Positions 3,061-52,102 of a stretch of 64,000 nucleotides of DNA are shown piece by piece. The position numbers and the translations under genes are program-made. How positions within the stretch are numbered: position 1 is the stretch's first letter; each line of letters opens with the position of its first letter. A model generated the notes under the pieces. It saw only the letters and a list, made by a program, of their open reading frames with translations, was not told the origin of the DNA and made no database searches. This DNA comes from Candidatus Wirthbacteria bacterium (lineage in GTDB: Bacteria; Patescibacteriota; CG2-30-54-11), in the NCBI GenBank assembly GCA_903889905.1, contig CAISZI010000040.1:128148-192147 (forward strand), given 5' to 3'.

Positions 3061-3131
3061 CAGGAATTGATATACATTCGTTAGCTCATTTAGCCGCGGA
3101 ATTATCCTGCTCGACATTAAAAGCCATGGAA

Positions 3132-28124: not shown

Positions 28125-28739
28125 GTGGCTACGCCAGGTGCATCACTTTCTTATCAGCGTGTGTCGCTGCAGGACGAAAAACTGTTGGTAGATGCCGCCA
28201 AGCAGGATTTGGCGCAATTTCAAACGCTCTATGCCCTCTATTTTTCGCAAATCTATCACTATTGCTATTTTCACACGTTTGATCCAATCGTTGCGGAAGA
28301 TTTGTGCAGCGACATTTTTTTGAAAGCACTTGAAGCCTTTCCCAAATTCACCTGGAAAAATGTACCGTTTGGCGCCTGGCTGCAACGTATTGCCAGCAAC
28401 CGCCTCAAAAATCACTACCGTGACCACAAAGCACTGATCGATCTGGAGGAAGTCGAGAATTTTGATTTCGGCGAGGGCGACGGCATGCTGGACAAACTGG
28501 CCGCAGCCGAACGCAAACTGGTGGTTAAGGAAGTGCTTAAAACATTGGGTTTCAGTTGTCAGGAAGTACTGATCTACCGTTTCTTTCACGATTTTTCCTA
28601 TGATCAGATCGCATCTCAGGTCGAGAAGTCGGTTGCAGCCTGCAAAATGCAAGTCAAACGTTGCCTGGCCAAGATGAAAGTTACGATTCAGGCGCGCTCG
28701 CCGGAGATCATTGCTGCGCATCCAGCCTTCACCAAATAA
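28125..28739 (+). CDS. ECF-type sigma-70 family RNA polymerase sigma factor
   Basis: Region 2 (LYALYFSQIYHYCYFHTFDPIVAEDLCSDIFLKALEAF) and region 4 HTH (QEVLIYRFFHDFSYDQIASQVEKSVAACKMQVKRCL). The start is uncertain (GTG at 28125). Confidence 0.75.
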   Translation: MATPGASLSYQRVSLQDEKLLVDAAKQDLAQFQTLYALYFSQIYHYCYFHTFDPIVAEDLCSDIFLKALEAFPKFTWKNVPFGAWLQRIASNRLKNHYRDHKALIDLEEVENFDFGEGDGMLDKLAAAERKLVVKEVLKTLGFSCQEVLIYRFFHDFSYDQIASQVEKSVAACKMQVKRCLAKMKVTIQARSPEIIAAHPAFTK

Positions 28740-28759
28740 TTCACCCAAGGATAATTCCC

Positions 28760-31700
28760 ATGGCCAAATCTAACGACGTCCAGCCCAACCCCGAACAAGA
28801 CCCAAACCTTGAACACCTTGCCGATGAATTGAAATCGATTTACCAGCAGGAAATACCATTGCGGCCCGATTTCAAAAGTGAACTGGGCAGTAAACTTGCC
28901 GCTGATGCTCGTGTCAAATCTGGTAAGTCCAGTCCGAGCCCAAAACATCAGGGACAACATTTCCTGGAATCATTCAAATCTTTTTTTCGTTTCCCCTGGC
29001 CAAAATGGGCTTATGCCGGGGCTAGTCTGGTGGTCGTGGTGGGACTGGTGGGGTCAGTTTATGGTTGGAGCAAATTGAGCCAAAAGCAGATTACATCCCC
29101 TGCTGCGGTTGCCGTGACCCACAAGACCGTCGTTTATGCCGACACAGAACTTACCCTTGCTAAATTACTGGATTCAGAGCTGGGTGTTTTGCCCAAAGGC
29201 TCCTTTGCAATTTCGAGTAAAGAATCCTTAAATCGTGTCGCCTTTGTGGCGGCATTGAAGGTAGAACCAGCGATTGCAGGAGATTTCACCTGGTCGGATG
29301 ACAGCAAAAAAGTGACCTTTGTGCCCAAAACAACATTGGCCACCGGGACGACCTACCACATTACCGTGGCCAGCACCGCCTTGAATGACAAAGGTGAGCC
29401 GCTGGCAAGTCCAGCCGAGTGGAGCATTCAGACGATACCGACTTTTGCGATTACTTCGACCACTCCCGCCGATCAAGGTGAAGGCGTTGATCGCACGAGC
29501 AGCATTGAAGTTCAATTCAACTACCGTAATGTCGCTTTGGCCGATTTTCAGAAGAATTTCAGCATAGATCCCTCCACTCCAGGTAAATTTGAACAACACG
29601 ACAGCGCGTTCGTTTTTTTGAGCGACCAACCACTTGCTGCCGAAAAATTGTATACCGTCACAGTCAAAAAGGAACTCATCAACCAGGACGGGTACCAACT
29701 CACGGCGGATAAAGTCTTCCAATTCCGCACCACGCGACAGGGAACAGCACAGTTTGCGGCCGAGCCCTGGTTAGATTTTGATTTGCGAACGGGCGCAATC
29801 GTGAGCTGGACGTCGGGCCACACCGAGAATTTTGTGGGTGCCAGCTCGAGCAACATGACCGATGCTGATGTGGTTAAATTTGAGCTTTATCCGGTTGACC
29901 AGAAAACGTTGTTGGCCAGCCGCCAGTATCAGTATGACCGCATGTTTGACAGCATTTTGCCCGATTTGGGAAGCCAGAAACCGACCGTTTCATGGCAGGC
30001 GAAAATCAGTGAACTGCGCGTTCAGGGCGATAATTATTCAACCAAGGACTTTAATCTGAATATTGGTTTGCCAAATTTGACTGCTGGTTATTATCTGGTC
30101 AAGGCTACAAATGACAAATTGGTTAGCCCGCGTTTTATTTATATCGTGGTGCAACCGCAACAGATCTCGCAGCAGGTGGATAATAATCACAAGCAAGTCG
30201 TGTGGGTGGTTGATTTTTCCACAGGCCAAACGGTGCCCAATCAGGCCGTCGATTTTTATACGCTGCGCAATCAGGTCAAAGTAATTGGTACCGAGTTCAC
30301 CGACGGGAATGGCCTGGTGGTCACTGACAAATACCAGGACGCCGATGCGATCGTTTCCAAAAATGGCTTACTCATCCTCAATTCCGGTATGTATTACACT
30401 GGTTACGCGGGGCCAACTACACCCATTCAAAATTATAAGGCTGTGATGGCCACGGACAGGCCCATCTATCGTCAGGGTGACACTGTCAAGTTCAAAGCCA
30501 TCATCCGTATGGACAATGACGGCAGTTTCAGCCCGCCACCCAAAGGTTCTGTCGTTTTGGTTTCATTAGGGGGTAATCGGTCGGTCCAGGGTAGTGAGTC
30601 AGTCCAGACCAAACTGGTGCTGGATAACACCAATGGCAGCATTGCGGGGGAAATCAAGATCCCGGAGACAACCTCCAGTGGAGATATCAGTTTGACCTTG
30701 TTTCTGCAAAATAACGCAACGTCAGATTATATCGACAGTTACTCATTTCCTGTTGACCAATACCGTAAACCGGATTATGAAATTTCAGTCAGCGCCGACA
30801 AACAGGAAGTTTTGTCAGGCGACACTGTCACCGCCACGATCAAGGCGAACTACTTTTTTGGCCAGCCAGTCAGCAACAAACAAGTCAAATACACCGTCTA
30901 TCGCACCTCAACCAGCGAACCGTTGCCGGGCGTGACGAAGACGACACCCGATCAGAATTACTGGTATGGTGGCGACCAGGTGGAACAGAAGACGGTTACA
31001 CTGGATACCCAGGGAACAGCTGTGGTTAAAATCAAATCTGATATTGCCGGGAAGTTAACCTCGCAGCAGTATAGTTTAGTGGTGGAATATACCGATGAAT
31101 CTGAGATTACCACTTCCGCCGGTGTCGGCTGGATGGTGCATCAGGGAGATTTTGCTGCCTTTGCTTTCTCGGCCAAGGCAGCCGTGAGGGTGAGCGATAA
31201 AACTGCCGTGACCGTTGACCTGTACGGCGCCATGAGTCGCAACAAGTGGCAACAAGCAGTTCCTTTAAGTATGACGCTGACCCGTTCCTGGACTGATGTC
31301 AAAATCAGTGAACAAACGGTTTACAATCCCGCCACCAAAAAACAGGATGTCAAACAAACGCGCACCTATAACCGCCAGTCCGAAGCCGCCGGCAACCTGC
31401 AGGCAGTCACCGATGCCAAGGGACAAGCTGTTTTTCAGGTTAGCCTGAGCAAACCCGGATCGTATACACTCGATATCGTGGGTCAGGATCAAGCTGGGCG
31501 TGCCATCAATACGTCACTTGTCATCATGGTCAGCGATGGAACCGCAGCCAGCTGGTGGCAGATTGCCAATCAGCAATTCAGCCTGAGCAGCGACCATGAG
31601 AGCTACAAAGTAGGGGACAAGGCAACGCTTTCGCTGCTGACGGACAAAACCAGCACGATGGCATTAGCCATTTTGCACAAAAATAACATTCTGGACTATC

Positions 31701-36129: not shown

Positions 36130-39100
36130 TTATTTAAGTTGAGCAAAATATTCTTCGACCATCCCTGTCGCGAGCTTAATCATGTCGAATCCACGGCCTT
36201 GACCGGCGGACAGCGTAACCGTGAACGCAATCTGGCGGCCATTTTTGTCTTCAGCAAAACCGGAAAAAATCTGGTTGTTGGAATTATTGCCTGTTTCGGC
36301 CGTACTCGTCTTGCCATAGAATTTGATCCCGGTTCTGGACTCCACACCAATAAAGGGAGCGCTAATCACCCCATCCGTGACATCAGTACGCAGCGCCTGC
36401 CTCATCCCTGCAACTTGCTCAGAGGACAAAGGTAATTGACCAGATTTTTCGGATGAAGCACCCTTGACGGTTGTTGGGACAACTTCCTGACCGTGATTGG
36501 CGACCGCCGCCATCAGGCGAGTGATTTCCATCGCCGAAAGCGAAATAGGTCCCTGGCCCATGCCCATAAATCCAGCGTCCGTGATCCCAAATTGCGTCTT
36601 GGCTTCACTGGCCCAGGCTGGATCGCCCACAGTACCATGTGACGATGGAATGCCATGCACCGCACTATCTACGCCAATACCGATAGAATGAGCAAAACGC
36701 GCGACAGCATCCAATCCCTGACTCTCAGCAATCCGTTCGCCCAGTTGATAAAAATAGACGTTGTGGGAAACGGCCAGCGCTTCGGCACCGGTGATCGGTT
36801 TGTTTACACCTTGGGACGTCGGTAGTATATGAAAGCCACCCATACCGTCGGGAATCTGCAGGATATTAGGCGTGTCTTGCGGTATATTGGTATCAATGCC
36901 ATAATGCGCGGCCGCAGCCAGAGTCAACACTTTCGCCACTGAACCCGGTGTCATGATGTCAGTGAACGCATGGCTGGTAGAATTTTCCTGGCCCTTTTCA
37001 TCCAGACTAAAAGCACTTAGCACTGCCCCGGTTTCCGGATTCATCATAATGGCGGTGAGGCCCTTACCGCCGTTGGCCGTGACAAAAGGTTTGGCCAGTT
37101 CGATATTGTGCTGATTCAATGTCGGGTCAATCGTCGTATTCTCGGCCAAAAACTGGGTGCGCTGTTCGGGAGTCAGGACTTCGGTGTTGTTGAAGAAGTT
37201 TTCTACCTGTGCGTCGCGACTGCTACTCTGATAATCATGAAATCCGGCAGGTAAATCAAATTGGCCATTCACCGCAGCCATGTAACGGCCGAATTTTCCG
37301 GCCATGGCGGTAAATTGCTCCCAGGTAACCATGACGTCGTGCGCTTTGCCGCCATCCGTGTGCGAAGGATCGGAATACACGACGAAGGTACGGCTCTCGC
37401 CATTCGTGCCCGGTTCACTGAAAATTGCCTCGACAGTGACCGTTACTTCGCTTTTCACCGCTCGTTCCAAGACCACATGGTCATGGGTGCCAACATTGCG
37501 GATCGTTGCATCTTCGCCACTGGCGGGATTGGAGAGCCACACCATCGGTTTGGCGCCATAGGTCAAACGTTCTTGCAAAACACTTAAGAAGTCAGCAATG
37601 TTGGAGGTTTCGATTGGCGTCACGTCCAAGCCAGCTTTGCTGGCAAGTGCTTCCAGGCCACGCGGGTATATGCCCACATCAGTTCTGGTCAGACCAGTTG
37701 AAGCTGAATCCAACGCCTTGGCCCAACCGAGGTTGGGGTCGATAATTGTGTAATCATCCCGTTGCGAAGCCAATTCGAAGGCCATTTGCGACATTTTGGT
37801 CGCCATCCCGTTATTCGTGAATTTCCCTTCCATGCGCAGGCTGTTCTGCCAGGCTGCCAATTGACTATCGGCCGCATCCTTTGCCTGCAACAATTCCACT
37901 GTGCTCGATCGTGGCAAAGGAACAATAGCCTCACGCTCTGTTCCTGCCTGCTGCATGACGCGTCCGAGATAGTTCCAACGCACGCCCTGTGCTTGGGAAG
38001 GATCCGGAATCAACTCATAAACATTCTGCTGTGAGTCAATCCACAAATCATCCCGGGAAATATTGTTATTATCATGACCCAAAATCTGGGTATTCAATTT
38101 GTCATACAATCGGACCGTGACACCACTATCGTCGATAATCATTTGTTCCACCGGCTTCAAATGCCCGGCAGTATCCAGTTCCTTGAGACCACCTTTGGGG
38201 GAGTAAACCAGCTGACCGCCGTTACGAGTTTGAACAACAACAGAATTGCCGTCTTTGTCCGTTGTACGAACGACATCGTACTGATCGGTGATCTGAGCAA
38301 ACGGAATAGCCCTGTCCACGGCAATTTCACCTGCCGTAGCGGTTTTGTTTGCATCGACTGTTAATATGCGGGGGGCGGTTGCCGTCGTCGACTGCTCTGC
38401 ATCAACGATATGACTGCGCCAAAGTTGCTGGTCATAATAAGCTTGCATCAAATCGGTGCTATGAGGACCAAACACCTGCTCGCGTTGAAGCGCCTCGATA
38501 AAATTTTCACCCGGGCGGCTAACAATCAGAGCAGGATCCTTGACGGGTACCGGCAGGCTACCGCTTGCAACCATGGATTCGATCAACGGCAGTGTTTCCT
38601 CACGTCCGGGAAGCAACATGCGGTTGATCTCCACCCTAGCCCGCGCGATCTCGGCATCTGAGACCATCTGGTTGTTGTTCATCAAATCCAGGCCATCATT
38701 GGCACGGCGCAACAACGCATTCACATTGTCCAGACTGGCGGCATTGTAGCGGCTTGGCATCTGAACCATGCCGGCGAGTAACACTGATTCGGCCAGATTC
38801 AAACTACCAGGATCTTTGCCAAACCATTTATTTGCAGCGGCACCAATACCTTCCACACCGCCGAAATTGCCCAAATTTTCATAGGCTGTCAAAATTTCCC
38901 GAGGACTCAGATTCATCGACAGGAATTGTGCGCGCACAAGATCTCCAATTTTGCGTTCCAGGGTTTTGCTGGCGTCAATGCTGAGCAGTTCGCGGGAAGT
39001 CTGTGTCGTGATGTTGCTGCCACCAGTCATGACTTTGCCGGTATCGGCCAGGTCACGCACAGCACGCATCGGACCCAAAGTGTCAACACCACCACCAAGT

Positions 39101-42100
39101 GCAGCAAAGCGTTTATCTTCAAAGGCCATGGTGGCCATTTGCAGATAGGGAGAAATATTTTCCAGCGGCACGGCGTTGGTCAACACGGTGTCAAATTGGT
39201 GAGTAGAACCACCGCTTGGAATTTGCAGGTTATCAATGGCTTTTTCCACTATGGAACCCATAAGTTTGAACAGCATTCCTTCATAACCCACCAATGATTC
39301 ACTTTGATGTCCTGCATTGGCCACAACGTTGGGTTTGCTGCTGGCGGACGATTCACTGGCGATTAGCTGTTCGCCCTGGTTTTTGAATTCTATCGCTGTC
39401 GCGCGGATGTCCTGCAGTTGCAAAACAAGGTCACGCAACACGGGATCCAAAATGCTGTTTAATATGTCTGCCACATTTTCCACATTGGGCAAATCGGCCT
39501 TGACTTGACGCAGCATGCCTTGCCAGAATTTCTCGTTGAGTAAGTCGGTAATATTAAAATCCATGCCCGGTTTCTCCAGTGTCCTGCCGCCAACATCCAC
39601 CCCAATCAGACCGTATTTGGCCAGCATTTCCTTTTGTCCCAGTTCCACGACACCATTGGACCTCAGCACGAAAACCCGACCATCGTCATCGGTATAAATT
39701 GGCATGCGATCAAACCAGTCAACACTGATCTTGCCATCGGCCTTGACCAGGTGCAGCCCGCGCTCTTGCATAAATTGAGCACGTGTTTCCACAGCTGCCG
39801 TACCCAAGGGCTGAATGGTTTTACCATCCAGAAAGTATGACAACCTGTCTTGACCGACAAATACCAGTTTGCCGCCATTTTTGGTCACCATGGGTTCGTT
39901 ACCGGTATGTGAAAGTGAATACGGGTTACCATCACTATCACGAAAACCTGCTTCGTCGCCAGCCCCATCAAGTCTTGAACCATCAACAACCCTGGCCAGT
40001 TGGTCCGCGACTTTTTCCAGTGAAGTTATTTTTTCATAGGCCCGATATTGGTCCACATTCAACTGATGCAAGAAACCTTTATCGGCAAACAGACGATGAC
40101 TCCCGTCAAAATCCACCCGCGTCGCCGGATCTGAGCGCAGGCTTTTGGCCATCTGCTCGTCCCAGGTCCGGGCCGTAAATCCCGAAGCTGTCAGTGTCAT
40201 TATTTCAGCAATGCGGCTGCCATCGGTGTGCACATATACAGGCAGCCCTCGGCCATCCGTGTAGGGTACCTCGTTGGCATCGACAGCAACAGCCCAGCCA
40301 CTGGCGGTAACGTAATCAGTATCCGACATCAGTTGGCTGCTTACGGGGACGAATTTTCCGTGCTCCACTACATAAGTCCCACCGTACGCTTGTTCGTATA
40401 CAATATGGCCTTTGGCATCTACCATCGGCCGGCCACCTTCCTGATGAACAGTATAGGCTTGCTGATTTGCGTCCAGCACAAAATTTCGATCGCTGGATAA
40501 TGTCAGTCCTTGATTGCCGGCGACCAAATCCGCCATCAGGTCATTTTCAATAATACCGAGGCTGTCCTGCTGTCCGACTACCGCCCGTTCCGCTACGGAA
40601 GCGATATAACCCTGCACTTCCAGCAATTGTTTCCCGTCTTTGGAGAGCACAAAAGCGTGTTTGGAAACCGGATCGATATAGGCATGTCCGCTTTCCGTAC
40701 CATTGGCCGTAGCCACTGGGAGTAGTCCTGATTGACGCATTTGCCAGGAATATTGCAAAGTACCAATATCAAACAACTTGTCAGGTCCAAGCGCACGCTC
40801 AACGGAAGTATCAAGTTGGACAACCGTGGCGACCTGGTTTAAATCCGGTTTGTCGGAATTTAATAGATATTTTCCGTTTTCATCACGATAGAGAACCCCG
40901 CCATTGGACTGCGGATCAATCCCTTTGGGAAGCAGGGTGTCGAGCGTAAGACTGGAACCTGAGTCGAGGAGAGCTTGATTGACCGCAATTCTAACCTCAG
41001 GGGATTGCAACGAGGTGAGATCCAACCCGATACCACGCACTCCCGGAACCATTTCCCGGGAACGTAGATAAGGAGCCAACGCCTTGAATCCATTTTGAGT
41101 GGCGACAGCATTCAGGTCAATTTCGTTGCCGGAACTGACAATGGCAAAATCAAAATAAACAATACCGTCCCGTGTCAGTTGCTGCGGCGAAACTCCCAGG
41201 GTTTGAAACAGTTCAAACAAACTGACATCTTTTTCCAGCGCACCGCTATCTTGATTACCTGACTGCATTAATTGCACCAGACGTTCCGCAGCCTGCGGCC
41301 GGGTATTGAGATGGCTGGCATCCACACCCAGATATTCCGCCACTTTTGTCAACCGGTTCCAGGTCGTATTCAAGGCACCTCGCGCGACACCGCCGGAATT
41401 GCTCGAATCGAGCAACACCTGTGCATTGATCTCGCCATTCGCATCCGGATCAATCCGCACATGGTTGATCCAGGCTCCTTGGTTCAAAACTACGTCATCC
41501 AGTTTGGATACCACGGAACTTAAGCGACTTTCAGTTTGTTTAATCAAATCAGCCGGCAGTTGATTCCCTTCGACCAGGATTTTATTGATCTGGATTCCTT
41601 CCTGGTTTTCTGTCCCCCGCAAAGCCTTGCCGAGTCTGTCCAGGGCGTCGCTTTGTGCGGGCAAAAAATTGTCAGCGGCTGCCTTGGCACGGACCATTTC
41701 CACCACGATTTCGTTGCGGCTGCCGCGTTCCCCAGACCAGTGGGTGTCAAGTGGTCGTGCCGTGGCAATTGTACCGTCCGGATAAATATAGAAATTGGCC
41801 AGTTCCTCGTCCTGTCGCCCAGCCTGGGCAAGGACAAAATTCTGCTTGCCCTCGGCAGACCCGAGATCGGCTTTGGTTGCTGTGGCGGTACGGACCGTCA
41901 ACTCGTGCGGCAATTGCAACATATCGTGCGTAACGGTATGGTCAATTCCCGGTAAGCGTGCAACCGCTGCCTGCGTGGCGTCTGTCATATCGATAAACTT
42001 ACCCAGATTGTGTTCACCCAGCATCAGTAAAGTAGCCTGCTCTGCAGTCCCGTAGTATTTGATGGCGCTGCCTGCGACACCATCACGCAGTGTTACGGCC

Positions 42101-45100
42101 ACTGTTCCGTCCTGGTAAACCCCGTCAAAAGTCGAAGCGCTGAAGTCACTGATTCGGGCATCGCTGCGCACCAAGCCGGAATTGATTAATTGCTGGTTCA
42201 AGCCGTCGCCTTGGGTATGCGGCGATACCAACAGTCGTTGCAGATAAGTCTGCTGGTTAGCGGCGTCGGCAAAACGATCGACGAGATCCGTACGACGGAT
42301 GGTTTGAACCCGTGTGGCAATATCGGTCGTTTCCTGCAACCGCAGAACGTCTTTACTGTCCAGCAAAAATATTTTTTGTCCCGTCTGCACTATGTCCCAT
42401 ACCGGATTGCCTTTTTGGTCGACAATCAGCGGATTGCCGTTCTGGCGCTCAGTATCCAGGCGGTTGACAAAATCATTGTAGGATCTCGCTACATCCGGAT
42501 GTGACTGGTAGAAATCCGTGAGCAGCGCCGAAAGGCTGGCCTTGTCGGTAGAGATTTCCCCAAGCCCTACGGCATTTTTGGGCAAAACTGACGTTTCAAC
42601 CGTTGGTTGATCCACGGTTTTGGTGTCGTTGGATTTGGTGTCAACGGGAGCAATGGTGTCGTTTGCCTGGGACAACAGGTGCGGAATTCCGTCGATTTGT
42701 GCTGTTTTGTGGATGATATAGAGCCATTGATCCGGCCGGATCAATGCATAACGCTCAGGCGAAATGACCTTATCGTTTTCGTCACGTATTTCGATTGAAT
42801 CGTCCACGCCGATTCCAAATGTTTTCTGAACAATGCCACTCACCGTGTCGCCGCTCTCTACACCAACCCTGACTTCCCCAATCCGATCCCCATGGTTGAT
42901 AAAATTCATAGATTCTGTCAGATTAAAATCACCCTCCACCTGTCCCTGGTCGATGCCATTTTTGACAAGCACTTTCTGCAACCGATCCAGGCTTGCAGGA
43001 TCATCAAAATTGATTCCCAGTTCATCCTTCATAAATTTCACCAGCTGACTTTCTTCCACCTTGTCCGTGATTTCACTGATCTGCCCATCGGCCAGCGCAT
43101 GCAGTCGTTCGAGCTTGGTGGCCACGGATTCCTGATGGCCGTCGGCGTCTTTGGCCAGGGTGAAACGGATGTGAAGCGTTTTTCCATCCTGAATACTGCC
43201 GGTATCCACGTTTGTGTTGGGCGGCACTTCATTCGCAGGTTCGACTTGAGGATGTACTTCTTTCGCAGTGGAGTTGGTCACGACAGGCTTAGCCGACTCC
43301 GTTGTGGACAAACGGTTTAATTCTCCTGCTGAGAGCCATTGATTGTCGGTGTAATAAAACATGTTGGCGCCGACACTGCGTACGAGTTGGCCATTCACTT
43401 CATAATACAGGTATTTGTCACCAGTTTTTTCATCTTTCAATTCCACACTGAGTGGTGCTTCCTTGTGCCCTCGGCCCAACGCAGTCAGGACGTCATTTTC
43501 CACCTGGTCAACGGCGTGTAATGGGTCCGTGTCGCGGTTAAAGGCGCCCCGATTAAACAATTCCACCACGTCATCGACAGTTTTGGCTCTACCGAGCTCT
43601 CCGATCACAAATTTTTGCATCACTTTGCTGCCCACGGATTTCGCGCCATCCGCAGCAAAGGCCAGCGTGATACCGGATTCAATTGCGGTTAGAAATTTCC
43701 ACAAACCGGAAGTTTTGACCTCCGTGCCCTGCGTCAGTTCCTTAAGCATGCCCATTAGTCGCATCAGGGTGAGATCCCCGACCAGCACGGTATTGATAGG
43801 CCCGAGATTGAAACCCATTTTTTCCAGCAACAAAAACGTGGGCGCAGCCACCGCGGCCGTCATAACCATGCCGGCTTTTTCAAGACCATGCTTGGTATCT
43901 TTGAGTTCATGCATAAATTCCTGCACTGAACCCACGGATCCACCGATCATTTTGGTGGTACGGAATATGGACCAGATTTCGCTCGGATTCAGTTCCAGCA
44001 CATTGATCGGTAAGCCCGCAAGCAGATTGGGCAATAGTAACATATTGCTGAACATGGCGGCGAAATCAGTAACCATGAGTCGTGCGGTTTCGTCGGTAAT
44101 CTTGTCACTAACTTTGACGCTTTCACCCGTGAGCTGGTCTTTCATCAATTTCCCCACTGCCTTGTCCAGCAATTCCCGTCCGCCATGTTCCCAGACATGT
44201 CCCGTGATCTTGTTGGCGCCCGTGACATGCAGCAGTTCAAAGGCTGCAGTGCCCAGAATTGCCTTGTATGCGGTTTCCAATACACTTACGCCTTCACCGC
44301 CATAGAACAGTGCTTTTTCCACCGCATCGCGCAGCGATCTACTCGCCCGTAAGTTTTCATCGCTATCACCATCCTTCGCCTGCTTGCGACCGCGCTCAGC
44401 CGCCCGTTGCTCGACGCGCTGGAGGCGCTGCGCCCGACGTTCCAGATTGCGATCCAGCACAGCGTTCACAGTTTTACCCATCGAAGTTTCGTGCAGGAAA
44501 TAGTCAACCGTACCGAGATTTTTCTGTTTCTGCCCACTCTTGAAAGAGGATAAATCTCGACGCAACTTGGCCAGAGAATTGACATAGTACACATAACCAT
44601 CAACCACAAAATTCTTTTCCTGATCTTTCGTAAACCGAATGGGTTTCAATTTAAAACTGTGTTCATCCGTCTCGTCCACTTCCACAACCTCAAAATTGTC
44701 TTCCCCCAGTCCCAATTCTTGCATCTCGCGGAAAAAGCCAGTTTCTTTTAACAAATGCCTGATTTCCTTGTGCAGATGCTTGTTTTCTTTGGCCTGTTCT
44801 GCCACACGTTTGGCGTAGGATTTACCCAACACCTCAACCGAATTCTTCAATACCAAGCTGCCATCCTGGCGATTCACCTGAAAGTGAATTTCCGTTTTTC
44901 CCTTGGGTGTAGTGACCTGATTTAGCTTGACGGTTTCCGTTCCCGGATCAAAATGACCTAATTTAGCCAATTGTTTTTCCACTTCCGCCTGCAATCTCGA
45001 ATTTGACGTGGGAACCACTTCATTTTCGGACGCGGTGGCCTGCGGATCAGACAGACGTGGCACTGCTGACGCTACCGACGACTTAATCGGACTGGAACTT

Positions 45101-45492
45101 ACTTTCGGGTCTTCGCCGATTAGACGTGCTGCTGGTAAACCATTGTTGCCGTCTGTCGCTCTTTGACCGGTGCGCTGGGTCCGCTTTTGTCTGCGGCTGT
45201 CTTGCTCATCCGCTTGGACTTTTTCCAAAGCGGTACCCTTGATCATGTCGGCAAAGTAATCAAGTGAATGAGAATCAACAACCGTTTTGCCACGACTATT
45301 GCAAATTATAAAGCTGGCTCCATCACTCGGCTGCGCGTCAGTCCCCCAGTCTTGAAACACGACAGAACTACCCTTGGGACAACGACCGCCTTTTTGATAA
45401 ACCGCCAGAATCCGGGCAGCCAGTATTTGCTGGTAATCACCCAGCACCTCTTGCTCAGCAGGCAAAACAGAATCTCTGGATATCTCAGACAT
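36130..45492 (-). CDS. Giant (about 3,120 aa) class-A penicillin-binding-protein-like protein: N-terminal region of about 2,100 aa of unknown function, then a GT51 transglycosylase, a roughly 500-aa insert and a transpeptidase
   Basis: Single uninterrupted ORF. GT51 motifs at about 38650-39180 (MAFEDKRFAALGGGVD, GGSNITTQ, RKIGDLVRAQ). Transpeptidase at about 36133-37250 (TPGSVAK = SxxK; SHN = SxN; GKTSTA = K(T/S)G-like). Hydrophobic TM-like segments at about residues 540-680. GGAG lies 7 nt before the ATG at 45492; the longer alternative starts at 45525. Confidence 0.75.
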   Translation of the reverse strand: MSEISRDSVLPAEQEVLGDYQQILAARILAVYQKGGRCPKGSSVVFQDWGTDAQPSDGASFIICNSRGKTVVDSHSLDYFADMIKGTALEKVQADEQDSRRQKRTQRTGQRATDGNNGLPAARLIGEDPKVSSSPIKSSVASAVPRLSDPQATASENEVVPTSNSRLQAEVEKQLAKLGHFDPGTETVKLNQVTTPKGKTEIHFQVNRQDGSLVLKNSVEVLGKSYAKRVAEQAKENKHLHKEIRHLLKETGFFREMQELGLGEDNFEVVEVDETDEHSFKLKPIRFTKDQEKNFVVDGYVYYVNSLAKLRRDLSSFKSGQKQKNLGTVDYFLHETSMGKTVNAVLDRNLERRAQRLQRVEQRAAERGRKQAKDGDSDENLRASRSLRDAVEKALFYGGEGVSVLETAYKAILGTAAFELLHVTGANKITGHVWEHGGRELLDKAVGKLMKDQLTGESVKVSDKITDETARLMVTDFAAMFSNMLLLPNLLAGLPINVLELNPSEIWSIFRTTKMIGGSVGSVQEFMHELKDTKHGLEKAGMVMTAAVAAPTFLLLEKMGFNLGPINTVLVGDLTLMRLMGMLKELTQGTEVKTSGLWKFLTAIESGITLAFAADGAKSVGSKVMQKFVIGELGRAKTVDDVVELFNRGAFNRDTDPLHAVDQVENDVLTALGRGHKEAPLSVELKDEKTGDKYLYYEVNGQLVRSVGANMFYYTDNQWLSAGELNRLSTTESAKPVVTNSTAKEVHPQVEPANEVPPNTNVDTGSIQDGKTLHIRFTLAKDADGHQESVATKLERLHALADGQISEITDKVEESQLVKFMKDELGINFDDPASLDRLQKVLVKNGIDQGQVEGDFNLTESMNFINHGDRIGEVRVGVESGDTVSGIVQKTFGIGVDDSIEIRDENDKVISPERYALIRPDQWLYIIHKTAQIDGIPHLLSQANDTIAPVDTKSNDTKTVDQPTVETSVLPKNAVGLGEISTDKASLSALLTDFYQSHPDVARSYNDFVNRLDTERQNGNPLIVDQKGNPVWDIVQTGQKIFLLDSKDVLRLQETTDIATRVQTIRRTDLVDRFADAANQQTYLQRLLVSPHTQGDGLNQQLINSGLVRSDARISDFSASTFDGVYQDGTVAVTLRDGVAGSAIKYYGTAEQATLLMLGEHNLGKFIDMTDATQAAVARLPGIDHTVTHDMLQLPHELTVRTATATKADLGSAEGKQNFVLAQAGRQDEELANFYIYPDGTIATARPLDTHWSGERGSRNEIVVEMVRAKAAADNFLPAQSDALDRLGKALRGTENQEGIQINKILVEGNQLPADLIKQTESRLSSVVSKLDDVVLNQGAWINHVRIDPDANGEINAQVLLDSSNSGGVARGALNTTWNRLTKVAEYLGVDASHLNTRPQAAERLVQLMQSGNQDSGALEKDVSLFELFQTLGVSPQQLTRDGIVYFDFAIVSSGNEIDLNAVATQNGFKALAPYLRSREMVPGVRGIGLDLTSLQSPEVRIAVNQALLDSGSSLTLDTLLPKGIDPQSNGGVLYRDENGKYLLNSDKPDLNQVATVVQLDTSVERALGPDKLFDIGTLQYSWQMRQSGLLPVATANGTESGHAYIDPVSKHAFVLSKDGKQLLEVQGYIASVAERAVVGQQDSLGIIENDLMADLVAGNQGLTLSSDRNFVLDANQQAYTVHQEGGRPMVDAKGHIVYEQAYGGTYVVEHGKFVPVSSQLMSDTDYVTASGWAVAVDANEVPYTDGRGLPVYVHTDGSRIAEIMTLTASGFTARTWDEQMAKSLRSDPATRVDFDGSHRLFADKGFLHQLNVDQYRAYEKITSLEKVADQLARVVDGSRLDGAGDEAGFRDSDGNPYSLSHTGNEPMVTKNGGKLVFVGQDRLSYFLDGKTIQPLGTAAVETRAQFMQERGLHLVKADGKISVDWFDRMPIYTDDDGRVFVLRSNGVVELGQKEMLAKYGLIGVDVGGRTLEKPGMDFNITDLLNEKFWQGMLRQVKADLPNVENVADILNSILDPVLRDLVLQLQDIRATAIEFKNQGEQLIASESSASSKPNVVANAGHQSESLVGYEGMLFKLMGSIVEKAIDNLQIPSGGSTHQFDTVLTNAVPLENISPYLQMATMAFEDKRFAALGGGVDTLGPMRAVRDLADTGKVMTGGSNITTQTSRELLSIDASKTLERKIGDLVRAQFLSMNLSPREILTAYENLGNFGGVEGIGAAANKWFGKDPGSLNLAESVLLAGMVQMPSRYNAASLDNVNALLRRANDGLDLMNNNQMVSDAEIARARVEINRMLLPGREETLPLIESMVASGSLPVPVKDPALIVSRPGENFIEALQREQVFGPHSTDLMQAYYDQQLWRSHIVDAEQSTTATAPRILTVDANKTATAGEIAVDRAIPFAQITDQYDVVRTTDKDGNSVVVQTRNGGQLVYSPKGGLKELDTAGHLKPVEQMIIDDSGVTVRLYDKLNTQILGHDNNNISRDDLWIDSQQNVYELIPDPSQAQGVRWNYLGRVMQQAGTEREAIVPLPRSSTVELLQAKDAADSQLAAWQNSLRMEGKFTNNGMATKMSQMAFELASQRDDYTIIDPNLGWAKALDSASTGLTRTDVGIYPRGLEALASKAGLDVTPIETSNIADFLSVLQERLTYGAKPMVWLSNPASGEDATIRNVGTHDHVVLERAVKSEVTVTVEAIFSEPGTNGESRTFVVYSDPSHTDGGKAHDVMVTWEQFTAMAGKFGRYMAAVNGQFDLPAGFHDYQSSSRDAQVENFFNNTEVLTPEQRTQFLAENTTIDPTLNQHNIELAKPFVTANGGKGLTAIMMNPETGAVLSAFSLDEKGQENSTSHAFTDIMTPGSVAKVLTLAAAAHYGIDTNIPQDTPNILQIPDGMGGFHILPTSQGVNKPITGAEALAVSHNVYFYQLGERIAESQGLDAVARFAHSIGIGVDSAVHGIPSSHGTVGDPAWASEAKTQFGITDAGFMGMGQGPISLSAMEITRLMAAVANHGQEVVPTTVKGASSEKSGQLPLSSEQVAGMRQALRTDVTDGVISAPFIGVESRTGIKFYGKTSTAETGNNSNNQIFSGFAEDKNGRQIAFTVTLSAGQGRGFDMIKLATGMVEEYFAQLK

Positions 45493-45961
45493 GTTGCATC
45501 TCCGCCATTTGGGTGAAAGCTGCATGCACTCCCTGAACGTTGCCGGCCTTCAAATCATCGGCCAGTTGCGTACCAATACCAAGTTTTTCAATTTTCTGCA
45601 TATCCATAACCGTATTCAGAATGGTTTGTGAATATTCTTCAGCAATACGCGAACTCAAGGTCCTCAATGTTTTCTGCATGTCTTTTCCCGTTCTATCTTC
45701 AATCTCTCGGATCATTTGTGGTAATTCATGCTCAGCATCGCTCTCCATTCTAATCGCCCAGCGTTGTTGTTCAGGTGCACTGAATACCGGTTCAAATACC
45801 TCTTTCCAGAACGCCAGCAAAAGCAGCCAACGCATCGCTGGTTCCGCGGCCTTGGCAATTGCCTCAGCATGCAACGTTTCTGTCGCAGGAAATATATGGT
45901 TTGGCTTGTGTATACTTTTGTCCATCGCTATTTCTGATAAAAAACAAATATATCTGATCAT
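45485..45961 (-). CDS. Hypothetical protein upstream of, and overlapping, the giant PBP gene
   Basis: 158-aa ORF with an 8-bp overlap onto the giant gene start. An alternative start is at 45925 (MDKSIHK). Confidence 0.45.
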   Translation of the reverse strand: MIRYICFLSEIAMDKSIHKPNHIFPATETLHAEAIAKAAEPAMRWLLLLAFWKEVFEPVFSAPEQQRWAIRMESDAEHELPQMIREIEDRTGKDMQKTLRTLSSRIAEEYSQTILNTVMDMQKIEKLGIGTQLADDLKAGNVQGVHAAFTQMAEMQHV

Positions 45962-47997: not shown

Positions 47998-49503
47998 ATG
48001 GATCGCAAAATTCCGATTTTGATGGCTTCGCAACATCCCGACAATATCTCTTCGCCATACTGGAAAAAAGACCCTTTTGTGACCACCTACGAAGAAACCG
48101 AAGAATGCTATCGTTGCTACCACGATTTGGGCTGTGATGAATATATGTGGGACTGGGAAGGCAAGCTTGTGGATGAAGCCGTGATCGACCGTTTGTTGCG
48201 CAAATACAATGAGTATTTCAGCAAACACCAAATTGGCCGTGACTTGTTTCTGACCATGCGCATTCCCAATCAAGCCTACGAATCTGGCTACCGCAATGCA
48301 CGCGCCTTTATGGGCATGTTGTCGGCTGAGGAATTCGTGCGCGACCTGAAACTCAACACACCGCCACTGTTTGAACTGATTTTGCCCATGACCACCAATG
48401 CCGAAGAACTGATGCAGATTGAAACCACTTTTCAGCGCACCGCGCAACTCAAATCCGAAGTGTTTGAGCAAAAACTGGGCATGGACCGGGTGGATGTGAT
48501 CCCGCTGTTCGAAGGCGTGGACAACCTGGTCAATTCGCACGCGATCATCCAAAAGTATTTTGCCTTGTACCGTAAACATTTTGGCCACAATCCTGAATAC
48601 CTGCGGCCGTTTGTGGCGCGTTCAGATCCTGCTCTCAACAGCGGTATCGTTGCCACCACACTGGGTATCAAAATTGCCTTGTCACAGTTTGCACAACTGG
48701 CCGAATCCACCGGCATCCCCATGTATCCGATTATCGGTCCAGGTGGGCTGCCTTTCCGCGGCCATTTGCATCCCCAGAATGTTAAACACTTTGTACGCGA
48801 ATATGCCGGGGTTTATACTGCTGTGATCCAGTCCTCGTTTCGTTATGACTGGCCCATGGACGAAGTCAAAGCTGCGCTCAAGTACCTCAAACGTGAGCTC
48901 CCCAAACGCCAGGCCGTAACGATCCCGCCCCAGGATCGGCAAGGTTTGCTCAAGATCATTGCCATTTTTGAAAACCACTACCGCAAAACCGTCGAAAAGC
49001 TGGCTGACCAGATCAATGACATCGCCGCTTATGTCCCGTCACGTCGTGAACGCATGTTGCACATTGGCCTGTTTGGTTACAGCCGCAAAGTTGGCAAAAA
49101 AGCTCTGCCACGCGCCATCAAGTTCACTTCAGCGTTGTATTCGATTGGCATCCCTCCCGAACTGATTGGGGTTGGCCGGGGACTGGCGGATATCAAGCAA
49201 GCAGGCCTGATGGACTTGCTGTTTAAATACTACGTCAATCTCGAACACGACATCAAAAACGCCGGTTACTATCTTAATCGTGAAAACCTGCAGTTTCTGG
49301 TCAATGACAGTGCGACCTGGAAAGAAGTCCAAAAAGACGTGACGCTGATCGAAGAAATTCTCGGACTGGAACTTGGCCCACGCGCGCTCGAGCACTATAT
49401 CCATCGCAATTCCACCTCCAATGTTTATTTTCTCAAGCAGGATGGCCGGGACTTTGTCAAAGAAATCGAGTGGGCCGCCAAATGGCGCAAAAGTCTTGGT
49501 TAA
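47998..49503 (+). CDS. ppcA: Archaeal-type phosphoenolpyruvate carboxylase (PpcA/atPEPC)
   Basis: MDRKIPILMASQHPDN is the hallmark N-terminus of archaeal-type PEPC. Protein of about 500 aa. GAGGA RBS 4 nt before the ATG at 47998. Confidence 0.8.
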   Translation: MDRKIPILMASQHPDNISSPYWKKDPFVTTYEETEECYRCYHDLGCDEYMWDWEGKLVDEAVIDRLLRKYNEYFSKHQIGRDLFLTMRIPNQAYESGYRNARAFMGMLSAEEFVRDLKLNTPPLFELILPMTTNAEELMQIETTFQRTAQLKSEVFEQKLGMDRVDVIPLFEGVDNLVNSHAIIQKYFALYRKHFGHNPEYLRPFVARSDPALNSGIVATTLGIKIALSQFAQLAESTGIPMYPIIGPGGLPFRGHLHPQNVKHFVREYAGVYTAVIQSSFRYDWPMDEVKAALKYLKRELPKRQAVTIPPQDRQGLLKIIAIFENHYRKTVEKLADQINDIAAYVPSRRERMLHIGLFGYSRKVGKKALPRAIKFTSALYSIGIPPELIGVGRGLADIKQAGLMDLLFKYYVNLEHDIKNAGYYLNRENLQFLVNDSATWKEVQKDVTLIEEILGLELGPRALEHYIHRNSTSNVYFLKQDGRDFVKEIEWAAKWRKSLG

Positions 49504-49532
49504 CCTTCCCAACGTATTCCAAGGAGTTTCGC

Positions 49533-51434
49533 ATGCAACGTATCTGGGTAACGCAAACAGCTCAAAAGACAGAGCAACAGGTATTGCTCAAAGGCTGGGT
49601 GCACAATCATCGCGACCATGGCAAGGTTTTGTTTGTGGATTTGCGCGACCGGTCTGGCCTGGTTCAGCTCGTCTTTCAGCACGACCAGCATGAAGCCTTG
49701 TATCAGCAGGCACGTAAACTGGGCAATGAAGATGTGATTGAAGTGCTGGGCAAAGTTGTGGGTCGTGATGCCAAGCTGGTTAACGCCAAACTCGCGACCG
49801 GTGCCATCGAAGTGGTAGTCGAATCAGTAAAAATCCTCAGCCAGTGCGCTAAACTTCCGATTGAGATCAATCAGGAAAATCTGCAATTTGCCGAAGAACT
49901 GCGTCTCAAATACCGCTATCTCGACCTGCGCCGCCCGCACATGCAGCGCAAAATGATGCTGCGCAGCCAAATGGTCAACCTTTGCCGCGAATATCTGCTC
50001 CAAAACGAATTTATCGACATTGAAACTCCGATGTTGACCAAATCCACACCCGAGGGATCGCGCGACTTTGTCGTCCCCAGCCGTTTTTACAAAGGTAAAT
50101 TTTACGCTTTGCCCCAAAGTCCGCAGCAGTACAAACAGCTGTTGATGGTGGCTGGTTACGAGCGTTACTTTCAAGTCGCCCGCTGTATCCGGGATGAAGA
50201 CCTGCGCGCCGACCGCGGCTTTGAATTCAGCCAGCTCGATCTTGAAATGTCGTTTGTGGAACAGGCCGATGTGATGAGCTTGATCGAGGCCATGGTGATC
50301 AAGGTGGTGGACACGATCGGTGGCAAAACAATTCGCCAGCGCCCTTTTCCCGTGGTGGACTACCAGGATGCTCTCAAGCAGTACGGCGCTGACAAATTCG
50401 ACATGCGCGAAGATCCCAAGCATCCAGACGAACTGGCGTTTGCTTGGGTTGTCAACTTTCCCACCTTTGTCCGTGACGAAGAAACCAAAGGCTGGACCTA
50501 TTCGCATAACCCCTTTACCGGCCCCCAACCAGAGCTGCTGGAAACCCTGCGTAGCATCGATGTACAAAACCTCAAAGACCCGGCCGAGATCGCCAAAATC
50601 CAGAATCTGACCTCCACCCAGTACGACCTGGTGTGCAACGGATTTGAAATCGGTGGTGGCGGTATTCGCATCCACGATCCCGAACTATTGTCCAAGGTAT
50701 TTGAAATTATTGGCCACTCGCCCGCCAAAATTCGCGAGCAGTTTGGCCACATGCTGGATGCGTTCCAATATGGCGTGCCGCCACACGGTGGGATTGCTCT
50801 TGGGCTGGACCGTTTTGCCATGCTGCTCACAGGCGACACGAGTTTGAAGGAAGTAATTCCATTCCCCATGACTTCCAGCGGTCACACCGCGGTCATGGAC
50901 GCACCGGCTGATGTCACTGAAGCGCAATTGGTGGAATTGGGTTTGTCGATTCGGAGCAGTGCGAAACGCTCGGTGTTCAAAGACATTTGTACCATGCTCG
51001 ATGATCGCCATATCGTTTACAAAAAGTTTGAACACGAGGCCGTACTCACTTCCGAAGACGCGGCCAGGGTACGTGGCACGCAGCTTGCCAGTGGTGCCAA
51101 AGCATTGCTCGTGAAGGCCGGCAATGACTTCCATATGGTGGTGCTTTCGGCCCAGGAAAAGCTGGATTCCAAAAAGTTACGTGACACACTGGGAGTTGCC
51201 AAAACCCGCTTTGCCACACCCGAAGAAGTACTCCAGACGACTGGCTGCGAGCTGGGCGCGGTCCCACCCTTTGGCGACATCTTCAATGTCAAACTGTGGG
51301 TGGACAAAAGTTTGTCGCGTCAAACGACGGTCGATTTCAACGCAGGGGAGCGGACACGTTCGATTGAAATGTCGTATAGTGATTATGAAAAACTGGTCAA
51401 AGCACCTATTGTCGAGGTCACCGTTACGGCATGA
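49533..51434 (+). CDS. aspS: Aspartyl-tRNA synthetase (bacterial-type core lacking the GAD insertion) fused to a C-terminal YbaK/ProX-like aminoacyl-tRNA deacylase domain
   Basis: AAGGAG RBS at 49521. N-terminal OB anticodon-binding domain (GWVHNHRDHGKVLFVDLRDRSGLVQ). Class II motif 2 ARCIRDEDLRADRGFEFSQLDLEMSF. Motif 3 GGGIRIHD..GLDRFAML. The last roughly 165 aa align with YbaK (KALLV, LDSKKLRDTLGVAKTRFATP, TGCELGAVPPFG). Confidence 0.85.
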   Translation: MQRIWVTQTAQKTEQQVLLKGWVHNHRDHGKVLFVDLRDRSGLVQLVFQHDQHEALYQQARKLGNEDVIEVLGKVVGRDAKLVNAKLATGAIEVVVESVKILSQCAKLPIEINQENLQFAEELRLKYRYLDLRRPHMQRKMMLRSQMVNLCREYLLQNEFIDIETPMLTKSTPEGSRDFVVPSRFYKGKFYALPQSPQQYKQLLMVAGYERYFQVARCIRDEDLRADRGFEFSQLDLEMSFVEQADVMSLIEAMVIKVVDTIGGKTIRQRPFPVVDYQDALKQYGADKFDMREDPKHPDELAFAWVVNFPTFVRDEETKGWTYSHNPFTGPQPELLETLRSIDVQNLKDPAEIAKIQNLTSTQYDLVCNGFEIGGGGIRIHDPELLSKVFEIIGHSPAKIREQFGHMLDAFQYGVPPHGGIALGLDRFAMLLTGDTSLKEVIPFPMTSSGHTAVMDAPADVTEAQLVELGLSIRSSAKRSVFKDICTMLDDRHIVYKKFEHEAVLTSEDAARVRGTQLASGAKALLVKAGNDFHMVVLSAQEKLDSKKLRDTLGVAKTRFATPEEVLQTTGCELGAVPPFGDIFNVKLWVDKSLSRQTTVDFNAGERTRSIEMSYSDYEKLVKAPIVEVTVTA

Positions 51435-52102
51435 GACGTATCCTGAAATTCTTTGCGTCGTTCTGGGCATTGTTTTTGCTGGTGCCCTTTTTGGCTGTGG
51501 TGATTAGTTGCGCAGTGTTTTATGCGCTCGTGCAGCTCAATCAGCTGCCGATCTATCCCAAGGCTATCTCTGTCCCCGGCACCTACTCGGTCGCCCTGGT
51601 GTTTGGCGCTGGCCTGAGCAGCAATGGCCAGCCCAGCGCTGTGCTTAGCGATCGGGTTGCCGCGGCAGTGGATTTGTACAAGGCACAAAAAGTCAAGAAA
51701 TTACTAATGAGCGGTGATAATCGTTTTGTCACCTACAACGAACCCGGGGCGATGAAGAAACTGGCCATGCAAATGGGCGTTCCCGACGCCGATATTGTCC
51801 TGGACTATGGTGGCCGGCGCAGTTATGACACATGTTATCGTGCCAAACATATATTTGGGGTTGAGGACGCAATTGTGGTCACTAGCGGGTTTCATCTGCG
51901 GCGAGCTTTGTATACGTGTGCTGGCATTGGTTTACGGGTGATTGGCCTCAAGGCAGATACGCAGGAGTATACCAATGAAATCAACTGGCGACTGAGGGAA
52001 GTCCCGGCCAGCATCGAAGCCTGGTGGGAAGTTAACATTACCAAATCCGAAGCACAGGTCATGGGCAAAGCGGAAACGATCGTGTTTGCAACCACCAACT
52101 AA
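51431..52102 (+). CDS. SanA/YdcF-like DUF218 membrane protein
   Basis: N-terminal TM followed by a DUF218 core (ALVFGAGLSSNGQPSAVLSDRVAAAVDLY...LLMSGDN...VVTSGFHLRRA). ATGA overlap with aspS. Confidence 0.6.
   Translation: MRRILKFFASFWALFLLVPFLAVVISCAVFYALVQLNQLPIYPKAISVPGTYSVALVFGAGLSSNGQPSAVLSDRVAAAVDLYKAQKVKKLLMSGDNRFVTYNEPGAMKKLAMQMGVPDADIVLDYGGRRSYDTCYRAKHIFGVEDAIVVTSGFHLRRALYTCAGIGLRVIGLKADTQEYTNEINWRLREVPASIEAWWEVNITKSEAQVMGKAETIVFATTN

Follow-up and report, generated by a model that had tools for sequence, protein, structure and literature searches.

An aspartyl-tRNA synthetase without the GAD domain, fused to a putative INS-superfamily editing domain, in Candidatus Wirthbacteria

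Domain architecture of the fusion protein

We analyzed a 64,000-nucleotide (64-kb) stretch of a Candidatus Wirthbacteria genome (GenBank assembly GCA_903889905.1, contig CAISZI010000040.1, positions 128,148 to 192,147 of the forward strand), hereafter referred to as the window. The gene of interest, aspS-edit, occupies positions 49533..51434 of the plus strand and codes for a protein of 633 residues (plus the stop codon), in which an aspartyl-tRNA synthetase (AspRS) is followed by a putative aminoacyl-tRNA editing (deacylase) domain of the INS/YbaK superfamily. All features of the gene described below lie on the same strand. The coding sequence is one open reading frame (ORF), which may be read from GTG 49470 or from ATG 49533 and contains no internal stop or frameshift. 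We consider ATG 49533 the likely start, because the putative Shine-Dalgarno sequence AAGGAG (49521..49526, read off the sequence) lies 7 nt before it and because the closest homologs have the same length of 633 residues. An identical protein is present in NCBI/ENA (P0001), encoded on a contig of 192 kb.

The synthetase part is typical of bacterial AspRS in most respects. It starts with an OB-fold anticodon-binding domain (residues 17-102, 49581..49838; PF01336, 62.5 bits), followed by a class IIb catalytic core (residues 121-447, 49893..50873; tRNA-synt_2, PF00152, 360 bits). Within the core, the QSPQ motif was mapped to residues 195-198, motif 2 to residues 216-238 and motif 3 to residues 419-432. 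Residues Q195-Q199, R220, D221, E222, D223, R225, R228 and R427 are invariant in an alignment of 79 sequences. The natural C-terminus of AspRS (...LVELGLSIR, ending at residue 474) is intact and aligns with the C-termini of 6wom and 6hhv. The protein also passes the cutoffs of the bacterial aspS equivalog models of NCBIfam, NF001750 (625.8 bits against a cutoff of 443, matched in two stretches) and TIGR00459 (548.3 against 373.85 bits).

The window protein thus shares the OB domain, the core, motifs 1-3, QSPQ and the C-terminal tail with canonical AspRSs such as those of E. coli (1c0a), T. thermophilus (6hhv) and P. aeruginosa (4wj3), whose chains it matches with about 400 bits and a Foldseek E-value of ~1e-47. 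Unlike them, it has the GAD domain deleted, HNPFT in place of HHPFT, and a 154-residue putative deacylase domain appended. The absence of GAD is evident from several comparisons. A Pfam scan of the protein gave no match to the GAD family (PF02938), and in a MAFFT alignment residues 292-420 of E. coli AspRS, which make up GAD, have no counterpart. In alignments with the chains of solved structures, 6wom skips from residue 299 to 426 while the query runs from 293 to 298, and 6hhv (Thermus) skips from 295 to 419 while the query runs from 293 to 301. The junction left by the missing domain lies at residues 289-305 (FDMREDPKHPDELAFAW; 50397..50447), where ~125-129 residues of the E. coli, 6wom and Thermus proteins are absent.

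Two smaller deviations are also found in the core. The stretch SHNPFT (50502..50519), aligned to mHHPFTsP of 6wom and 6hhv, has asparagine instead of the second histidine of the near-universal bacterial HHPFT. HNPF[ST] is present in 118 of 120 homologs. We considered whether the substitution might be coupled to the presence of the editing domain and rejected this idea, since 13 GAD-containing fusions keep HH; the substitution is a lineage trait. The other deviation is an insertion of ~13 residues relative to solved bacterial AspRSs, located within residues 341-361 (50553..50615), where the PDB chains show an alignment gap; it is modelled as helices with high predicted local distance difference test (pLDDT) values. 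Overall, the best reading of the synthetase part is that it represents a bacterial-type AspRS, probably active, that has lost its GAD insertion. An earlier note on this DNA, made from the sequence alone, had recognized a bacterial-type AspRS with the OB domain and motifs 2 and 3 as well as the lack of GAD, and both points are confirmed by the Pfam, NCBIfam and alignment results. Its distance of about 145 residues between motifs 2 and 3 needs correction, the actual spacing being 180 residues.

The appended domain spans residues 480-633 (154 residues, 50970..51431). The tRNA_edit family (PF04073) matches residues 501-621 with 95.7 bits against a cutoff of 25.5 and is covered completely (profile positions 1-123 of 123). 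In the INS superfamily, a lysine and the GXXXP loop serve as catalytic motifs (PMC11286415). Both are found in the window protein: K523 (codon 51099..51101) within GAKALL (residues 521-526), which corresponds to the G-A-K-A-L motif of the superfamily, and G575-A-V-P-P579 (51255..51269) within GAVPPFG (residues 575-581), the latter forming the predicted editing active site. The role of the equivalent lysine has been described for YbaK (K46; PMC3532385). We assessed the conservation of these residues by counting alignment columns over 215 sequences divided into six groups. G575, P579, F602, N603 and G605 are invariant in all six, every sequence extending over position 501 has H501, and R514 is found in all but one. 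The lysine at position 523 is complete (119/119, 27/27, 12/12, 14/14 and 14/14) across GAD-less fusions, archaeal-type fusions, adjacent or solitary domains and untruncated eukaryotic sequences; among GAD-containing fusions it is found in 22 of 27, the other five having arginine.

Which family of the superfamily the domain belongs to is less obvious. The cutoffs of the models for YbaK proper (Cys-tRNA(Pro) deacylase), TIGR00011 and NF007951, were missed (54.7 against 153.25 and 31.6 against 243 bits, respectively). The best match among solved structures is 3op6 (E = 5.6e-20, 75 bits, residues 18-161 of the domain query), an uncharacterized 152-residue protein of Legionella pneumophila, which is a stand-alone protein, unlike the fused domain of the window. 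The PDB chains of ProXp-x, YbaK and ProXp-ala follow with E-values of ~1e-6 to 1e-7 (2.5e-6 for ProXp-ala). E. coli YeaK (b1787), annotated as 'mischarged aminoacyl-tRNA deacylase' and corresponding to ProXp-ST1, aligns end to end with 33% identity over 163 residues (E = 3e-24, 79.7 bits). The two are co-linear over the whole domain and have in common H, R-G-T, G-A-K-A-L, G-x-x-P-P-F and F-N-A-G. However, YeaK, a proteobacterial protein, consists of this single domain and stands alone, whereas the window domain is fused to AspRS; moreover, the fused domains are ~30% identical to YeaK compared to 40-47% for other solitary proteins, so that orthology and a shared specificity are unproven. YeaK and 3op6 themselves match each other weakly (25 bits). 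Judging from these similarities, the window domain appears to sit between YeaK/ProXp-ST1 and 3op6, and we did not assign it to any one of the INS families ProXp-ST1, ProXp-ST2 and ProXp-7/8/9. The earlier note had described the last ~165 residues as a YbaK-like domain and had proposed the search with PF04073. The superfamily assignment stands; the domain turned out to be somewhat shorter (~154 residues) and not YbaK proper, YeaK being its closest characterized relative. Nor is it a separate downstream gene exposed by a frameshift, an outcome that the note had allowed for, given the single in-frame ORF.

The two parts are connected by the C-terminal tail of AspRS and a short linker, SSAKR (residues 475-479), which together form a predicted flexible tether of ~30 residues (50880..50969; pLDDT ~49-55). 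An AlphaFold2 model built with 79 homologs has a mean pLDDT of 87.5 and a predicted template modelling score (pTM) of 0.70. The pLDDT exceeds 90 in the OB domain, in the core and at residues 480-630 (92-97 in the editing domain) and is ~50 at residues ~450-479. The model therefore suggests two confidently folded domains without a fixed mutual orientation. A Foldseek search with the whole model returned AspRS structures only, bacterial ones at the top (E ~4e-48, template modelling score normalized to the query ~0.63); it found no solved structure containing both parts and gave no information on how the domains pack.

Distribution and history of the fusion

The fusion is not confined to the window. 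The best 120 full-length homologs, 49-68% identical to the window protein, are all co-linear with it and contain the same three Pfam domains, and therefore the fusion cannot be regarded as an artefact. The homologs are annotated plainly as aspartate-tRNA ligases, and those with named sources come from Gottesmanbacteria, Beckwithbacteria, the 'Microgenomates group' and the 'Patescibacteria group'. More distant proteins carry the editing domain on other kinds of AspRS. A protein of 744 residues (P0196) combines it with a bacterial AspRS that retains GAD (PF02938, 92 bits; NF001750, 814 bits), and P0166 and P0218 combine it with archaeal-type 'aspartate-tRNA(Asn) ligases' (NF003483, 508 and 457 bits against a cutoff of 353). 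The order is reversed in P0170 and in six or more other environmental sequences (including P0276): the editing domain is N-terminal and is joined by a lysine-rich linker to a eukaryote-type cytosolic AspRS. These N-terminal fusions are protist transcripts; the extension matches the N-terminal regions of Entamoeba, human and yeast AspRS (best E = 3e-14), and the named solitary relatives of their editing domains come from a diatom, two ciliates and a haptophyte.

When 1.84 billion cluster representatives were searched exhaustively with the editing domain, 3601 related clusters were identified, 973 of them at E<1e-10. Most are solitary proteins of ~155 residues, 40-47% identical to the window domain. 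In its 150 best cluster representatives, the domain is joined to no synthetase other than AspRS. The remaining partners in this set are further copies of the same domain in tandem, ATP-grasp, glyoxalase, GmrSD_N and S11 peptidase. Thus, P0121 and P0123 (448 and 491 residues) and P0145 consist of two or three tandem YeaK-like editing domains alone. In P0167 (1012 residues), P0214, P0146 and P0230 the domain is joined to two ATP-grasp domains, a glyoxalase-like domain, a GmrSD_N nuclease and an S11 D-Ala-D-Ala carboxypeptidase; the last of these fusions, P0230, may be a read-through into a conserved downstream neighbor.

We also scanned GTDB representative genomes using an alignment of the fused editing domains and a single peptide pattern, FNAGx[HR][TD][RK]SI. 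This yielded 123 confirmed matches, of which the best 80 loci were classified by the surrounding ORF. The genome of the window itself is outside the scanned set, in which the best match is 61%. Editing domains fused to AspRS account for 66 of the 80 loci: 27 with bacterial GAD-less AspRS, 27 with bacterial GAD-containing AspRS and 12 with archaeal-type AspRS. In the other 14, AspRS is not part of the ORF. Two of these are truncated fusions, eight are solitary genes within 3 kb, and four are separate ORFs immediately following aspS, two of them after a gap of 30-70 nt, one with an ATGA overlap and one probably representing a fusion frameshifted at a run of A. For taxonomy we relied on records explicitly named as Candidate Phyla Radiation (CPR) or DPANN, since titles of TPA_asm metagenome-assembled genomes such as 'uncultured Gammaproteobacteria' or 'Methanosarcinales' look unreliable as labels. 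By record titles, GAD-less and archaeal-type fusions occur in Microgenomates (Roizman-, Gottesman-, Woese- and Amesbacteria). Most GAD-containing fusions belong to DPANN (15 Woesearchaeota and 3 Nanoarchaeota); a few come from other CPR bacteria, for example Peribacteraceae. In DPANN, a bacterial-type AspRS that contains GAD and bears the editing domain was observed at L053, L055, L063, L068, L075, L077 and other woesearchaeal and nanoarchaeal loci. Since DPANN archaea carry bacterial-type AspRS and CPR bacteria carry archaeal-type AspRS, the distribution suggests exchange of AspRS between CPR and DPANN across the domain boundary.

The relationship between the two modules can be followed in two Roizmanbacteria that are close relatives. 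The fusions at L025 (bacterial GAD-less AspRS) and L023 (archaeal-type AspRS) are only 35% identical in their AspRS modules, yet their editing modules are 77% identical and four flanking genes are 75-87% identical, the flanking genes having been compared for this pair alone. The pairs L025/L005, L017/L031 and L021/L020 behave alike, so that over all four pairs the identity is 32-35% for AspRS and 55-77% for the editing modules. In addition, Microgenomates with either type of AspRS have the same gene order: recJ, aspS-edit, a gene for a D-Ala-D-Ala carboxypeptidase-like protein (S11), a conserved gene on the minus strand, and gltX. As editing modules and flanks are conserved while AspRS modules diverge, the simplest reading of the sequences is that the synthetase module would have been replaced in place and the editing module retained.

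For the loss of GAD we used a neighbor-joining tree of the AspRS core (449 shared columns), which is rooted on a single outgroup, E. coli AspRS, has no support values and is therefore only indicative. In this tree, the GAD-containing fusions of DPANN fall on one side. On the other, the window protein belongs to a single GAD-less clade whose sister group consists of the GAD-containing fusions of CPR. Such a topology would fit a scenario in which the fusion came first and was followed by one deletion of GAD, making the fusion and the loss of GAD separable events. Fusion events could not be counted on neighbor-joining trees of the editing domain (155 columns), as their resolution was too poor. 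We therefore relied on the type of AspRS, the polarity of the fusion, synteny and pairwise identities instead.

Several loci place the editing module next to genes of asparagine decoding. In Woesearchaeota L007 (1700-4770), an aspS of the archaeal non-discriminating type (534 bits) is followed by a separate 161-residue editing gene, with an ATGA overlap, and then by asnS (484 bits against a cutoff of 414). Just downstream of the GAD-containing fusions in DPANN, gatC is found at five loci (89 bits against a cutoff of 47) and a gatA-like gene at four (454 bits, below the cutoff of 481). Furthermore, the archaeal-type AspRSs of the fusions match curated models of non-discriminating AspRS. The asnS, gatC and gatA neighbors appear to tie the editing module to the biology of tRNA-Asp and tRNA-Asn without pinpointing its substrate.

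Genomic neighborhood and other observations in the window

Directly upstream of aspS-edit lies a gene for an archaeal-type phosphoenolpyruvate (PEP) carboxylase (47998-49503, plus strand; PF14010, 463 bits). As this gene ends only 29 nt before aspS-edit, there is no room for a leader RNA. Directly downstream, a DUF218 gene (51431..52102, plus strand) starts with an ATG that overlaps the stop codon of the fusion (ATGA), from which we infer no functional link; it is followed by ScpA and then by tRNA-Glu. The order CAP, PEPcase_2, aspS-edit, DUF218, ScpA is also found on the contig of the closest relative (P0002). Within the 64-kb window, IleRS and CysRS are also encoded. No asnS (AsnRS), gatCAB (GatA), dtd, tRNA-Asn or tRNA-Asp gene, second AspRS-like gene or second editing domain was found there.

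An archaeal-type PEP carboxylase in an apparent CPR bacterium is an observation in its own right, and it keeps the same position on contig L083 of the closest relative. Close to aspS-edit, the same contig, which carries P0002, codes for two terpene-synthase-like proteins and for GAF/His-kinase sensors (L083:2262-4702), which seems unusual for a reduced CPR genome. Elsewhere in the window, a plus-strand gene (28661-34594) codes for a 1977-residue alpha-2-macroglobulin-like protein (MG2, bait region, A2M). A Hint/PT-HINT module, which may be an intein-like insertion, separates its bait region from A2M at residues ~1153-1295. A 3130-residue ORF on the minus strand (36130-45525) ends with ~1000 residues of a class A penicillin-binding protein (transglycosylase at 2114-2281, transpeptidase at 2823-3108), preceded by ~2100 residues without a Pfam match. 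Another long ORF (15580-20670, plus strand; 1696 residues) matches no Pfam family at E<=1e-5. Finally, the IleRS of the window (11874-14879, plus strand) has a C-terminal DUF5915 (PF19302, 52.9 bits) beyond its class I core and anticodon-binding domain.

A putative proofreading module of AspRS

Synthetases with an appended editing domain of the INS superfamily are known. What is new here is the partner, a synthetase not known to edit. The closest parallels are ProRS with the INS insertion, as in bacteria, or with ProXp-ala, in which a class II synthetase is likewise joined to the same fold with the same catalytic motifs (Lys and GXXXP); the terminal attachment by a linker resembles that of ProXp-ala in particular. 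ProXp-ala is fused N-terminally to ProRS in trypanosomatids, apicomplexans and other protists, and editing by this fusion is thought to take place largely after product release (PMC11295145, PMC11286415). The full-length T. brucei ProRS deacylates ~5-fold faster than the free ProXp-ala domain (PMC11286415). Unlike the ProRS systems, the fusion described here involves AspRS, a class IIb enzyme without a recognized editing requirement, and unlike ProXp-ala itself, the editing domain belongs to a different branch of the superfamily, as the E-values for ProXp-ala and 3op6 indicate. Another fusion protein, AspRS-GatC (NF009460), is similar in that a bacterial-type AspRS bears a C-terminal appendage concerned with the fate of the aminoacyl-tRNA product. 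Its appendage, however, is GatC and not a deacylase, and the window protein is not a member of that family (418 bits against a cutoff of 1379). According to a 2024 review, INS members are single-domain proteins apart from ProRS-INS, with ProXp-ala-ProRS and a plant C-terminal domain as special cases (PMC11295145). We found no AspRS with an INS-type editing domain described in the searchable full-text literature, a search that leaves most papers of subscription journals out of reach. The fusion had likewise been unfamiliar to the author of the earlier note, who had asked about its phyletic distribution; as seen above, it is widespread rather than a one-off.

Our preferred reading is that the domain is an AspRS-dedicated aminoacyl-tRNA deacylase, with several candidate substrates; judging mainly from comparative sequence data, we give it a probability of roughly 0.6. 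The architecture of the protein, its conserved and intact active sites and the repeated and retained association of the domain with AspRS are established. A dedicated coupling is suggested because the domain occurs with four kinds of AspRS, because AspRS is its only synthetase partner, because it was kept when the synthetase module was apparently exchanged, and because its unfused copies still lie beside aspS. The comparative case for a functional coupling is unusually strong. That it is hydrolytically active, that it acts on products of AspRS, and on which of them, we infer. In the proposed mechanism, when AspRS has formed an unwanted aminoacyl-tRNA on tRNA-Asp and/or tRNA-Asn, the tethered deacylase would hydrolyze it. 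Capture of the 3' end would take place while the tRNA is still on the synthetase or through re-binding just after release, in the way proposed for ProXp-ala-ProRS, and the AspRS body would supply the deacylase with tRNA affinity and specificity. By analogy with that system, the predicted flexible tether would fit editing by re-capture of the 3' end. As the substrate we would favor, by analogy with ProXp-ST1, tRNA-Asp charged with a small hydroxylated residue or another non-cognate one, then Asp-tRNA-Asn escaping conversion, and then D-Asp-tRNA-Asp. Of the functions suggested in the earlier note, proofreading linked to tRNA-Asp/Asn has gained weight through the repeated AspRS-specific fusion and the asnS and gatCA neighbors, while deacylation of Cys- or Ala-tRNAs in trans has lost some, the domain being below the YbaK cutoff (54.7 against 153 bits) and closer to YeaK and 3op6.

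A number of points weigh against this reading. To our knowledge, no misactivation by AspRS has been established that would make editing necessary. The 2024 review puts the number of synthetase families possessing an editing domain at seven; AspRS is neither discussed nor counted among the editing synthetases there (PMC11295145). In the structural model the domain is terminal on a flexible linker and not beside the active site, and the classical geometry of cis editing appears unsupported. Solitary homologs of ~155 residues abound (973 clusters at E<1e-10), also within the same lineages, and the domain also occurs in tandem triplets and in fusions to ATP-grasp, glyoxalase and GmrSD_N, so that it is not intrinsically bound to AspRS. 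Finally, both the pattern and the ranking used in the GTDB scan inflate the fraction of fused domains, and the proportions given above are not estimates of prevalence.

The main rival reading is that the domain would be a generalist Ser/Thr-tRNA deacylase similar to ProXp-ST1, which clears errors of AlaRS, ThrRS, LysRS, ValRS and IleRS and merely rides on AspRS, the fusion serving co-expression, stability or generic tRNA affinity in genomes undergoing reduction. The end-to-end similarity to YeaK, the breadth of tRNA specificity shown by ProXp-ST1 and ProXp-ST2 (PMC11295145), the predicted flexibility of the tether, the many solitary homologs and fusions to unrelated domains, and the concentration of fused forms in the reduced-genome CPR and DPANN lineages would all agree with this. 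We nevertheless consider it unlikely. A passenger would be expected on many partners, whereas AspRS is the only synthetase seen, in four types, with the domain at either terminus and in three domains of life; the domain is kept through exchange of the AspRS module, and its unfused copies still adjoin aspS. Membership in ProXp-ST1 is itself not established, as reflected in the weak match between YeaK and 3op6. The domain might alternatively be a guardian of the indirect Asn pathway, hydrolyzing or holding Asp-tRNA-Asn that was produced by a non-discriminating AspRS and not converted promptly enough by GatCAB, or that was made uselessly where AsnRS exists. The matches of archaeal-type AspRSs to curated 'aspartate--tRNA(Asn) ligase' models speak for such a role, and the aspS-edit-asnS operon of L007 and the gatC and gatA-like genes of DPANN loci are cited in its favor, although these neighbors cut both ways for destruction of Asp-tRNA-Asn. 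As far as we know, archaeal GatCAB serves the formation of Asn-tRNA-Asn only. Where GatCAB is the sole route, destroying its obligatory intermediate would be futile. A variant of the same idea is that in GAD-less enzymes the domain might take over the product-trapping role proposed for GAD, which lies beside the active site and has been suggested to trap Asp-tRNA-Asn (PMC3367201). However, GAD is retained in one half of the prokaryotic fusions, which means that the domain does not replace it, and the invariant catalytic lysine speaks against a purely holding role. Given also that the domain is found on eukaryote-type cytosolic AspRS, we regard this guardian role as improbable.

A quite different proposal is chirality proofreading, in which organisms scavenging amino acids and cell-wall fragments from their hosts would use the domain to clear D-aspartate off tRNA-Asp. 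AspRS is reportedly among the few synthetases able to transfer a D-amino acid, and D-Asp-tRNA-Asp is said to be a substrate of DTD (Soutourina et al. 2000). This would explain why, in every domain of life, AspRS is the sole partner. Of the 39 Microgenomates loci, 36 have a D-Ala-D-Ala carboxypeptidase-like gene as their direct downstream neighbor, and P0230 joins the editing domain and that peptidase in one protein. The peptidase neighbor is, however, absent from the lineage of the window itself and may reflect simple synteny, and we know of no INS-superfamily enzyme that selects for chirality. We consider this proposal very improbable.

Returning to an AspRS-dedicated deacylase, we tentatively suggest, at somewhat less than even odds, that in large parts of CPR and DPANN and in some protists AspRS may have a post-transfer editing module of its own, which would imply an error of AspRS that has escaped recognition. 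If true, AspRS would be an additional family of proofreading synthetases. The error could be tRNA-Asp charged with a D-amino acid or a non-cognate one, or Asp-tRNA-Asn left unconverted. It would be serious enough for a minimum of three or four captures of the module and for its retention even through replacement of the synthetase. The repeated fusion to four kinds of AspRS, in bacteria and archaea of ultra-small size and in protists, points to an undescribed proofreading step tied to the decoding of aspartate and asparagine. The finding would also bear on the accuracy of translation in organisms with minimal genomes, on the still unclear role of GAD, which in this lineage appears to have been lost after the fusion arose, and on the apparently extensive cross-domain traffic in AspRS modules linking CPR bacteria with DPANN archaea. 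That a deacylase follows AspRS over three domains of life and survives an apparent synthetase swap would indicate a fidelity problem at Asp and Asn codons that has so far not been described.

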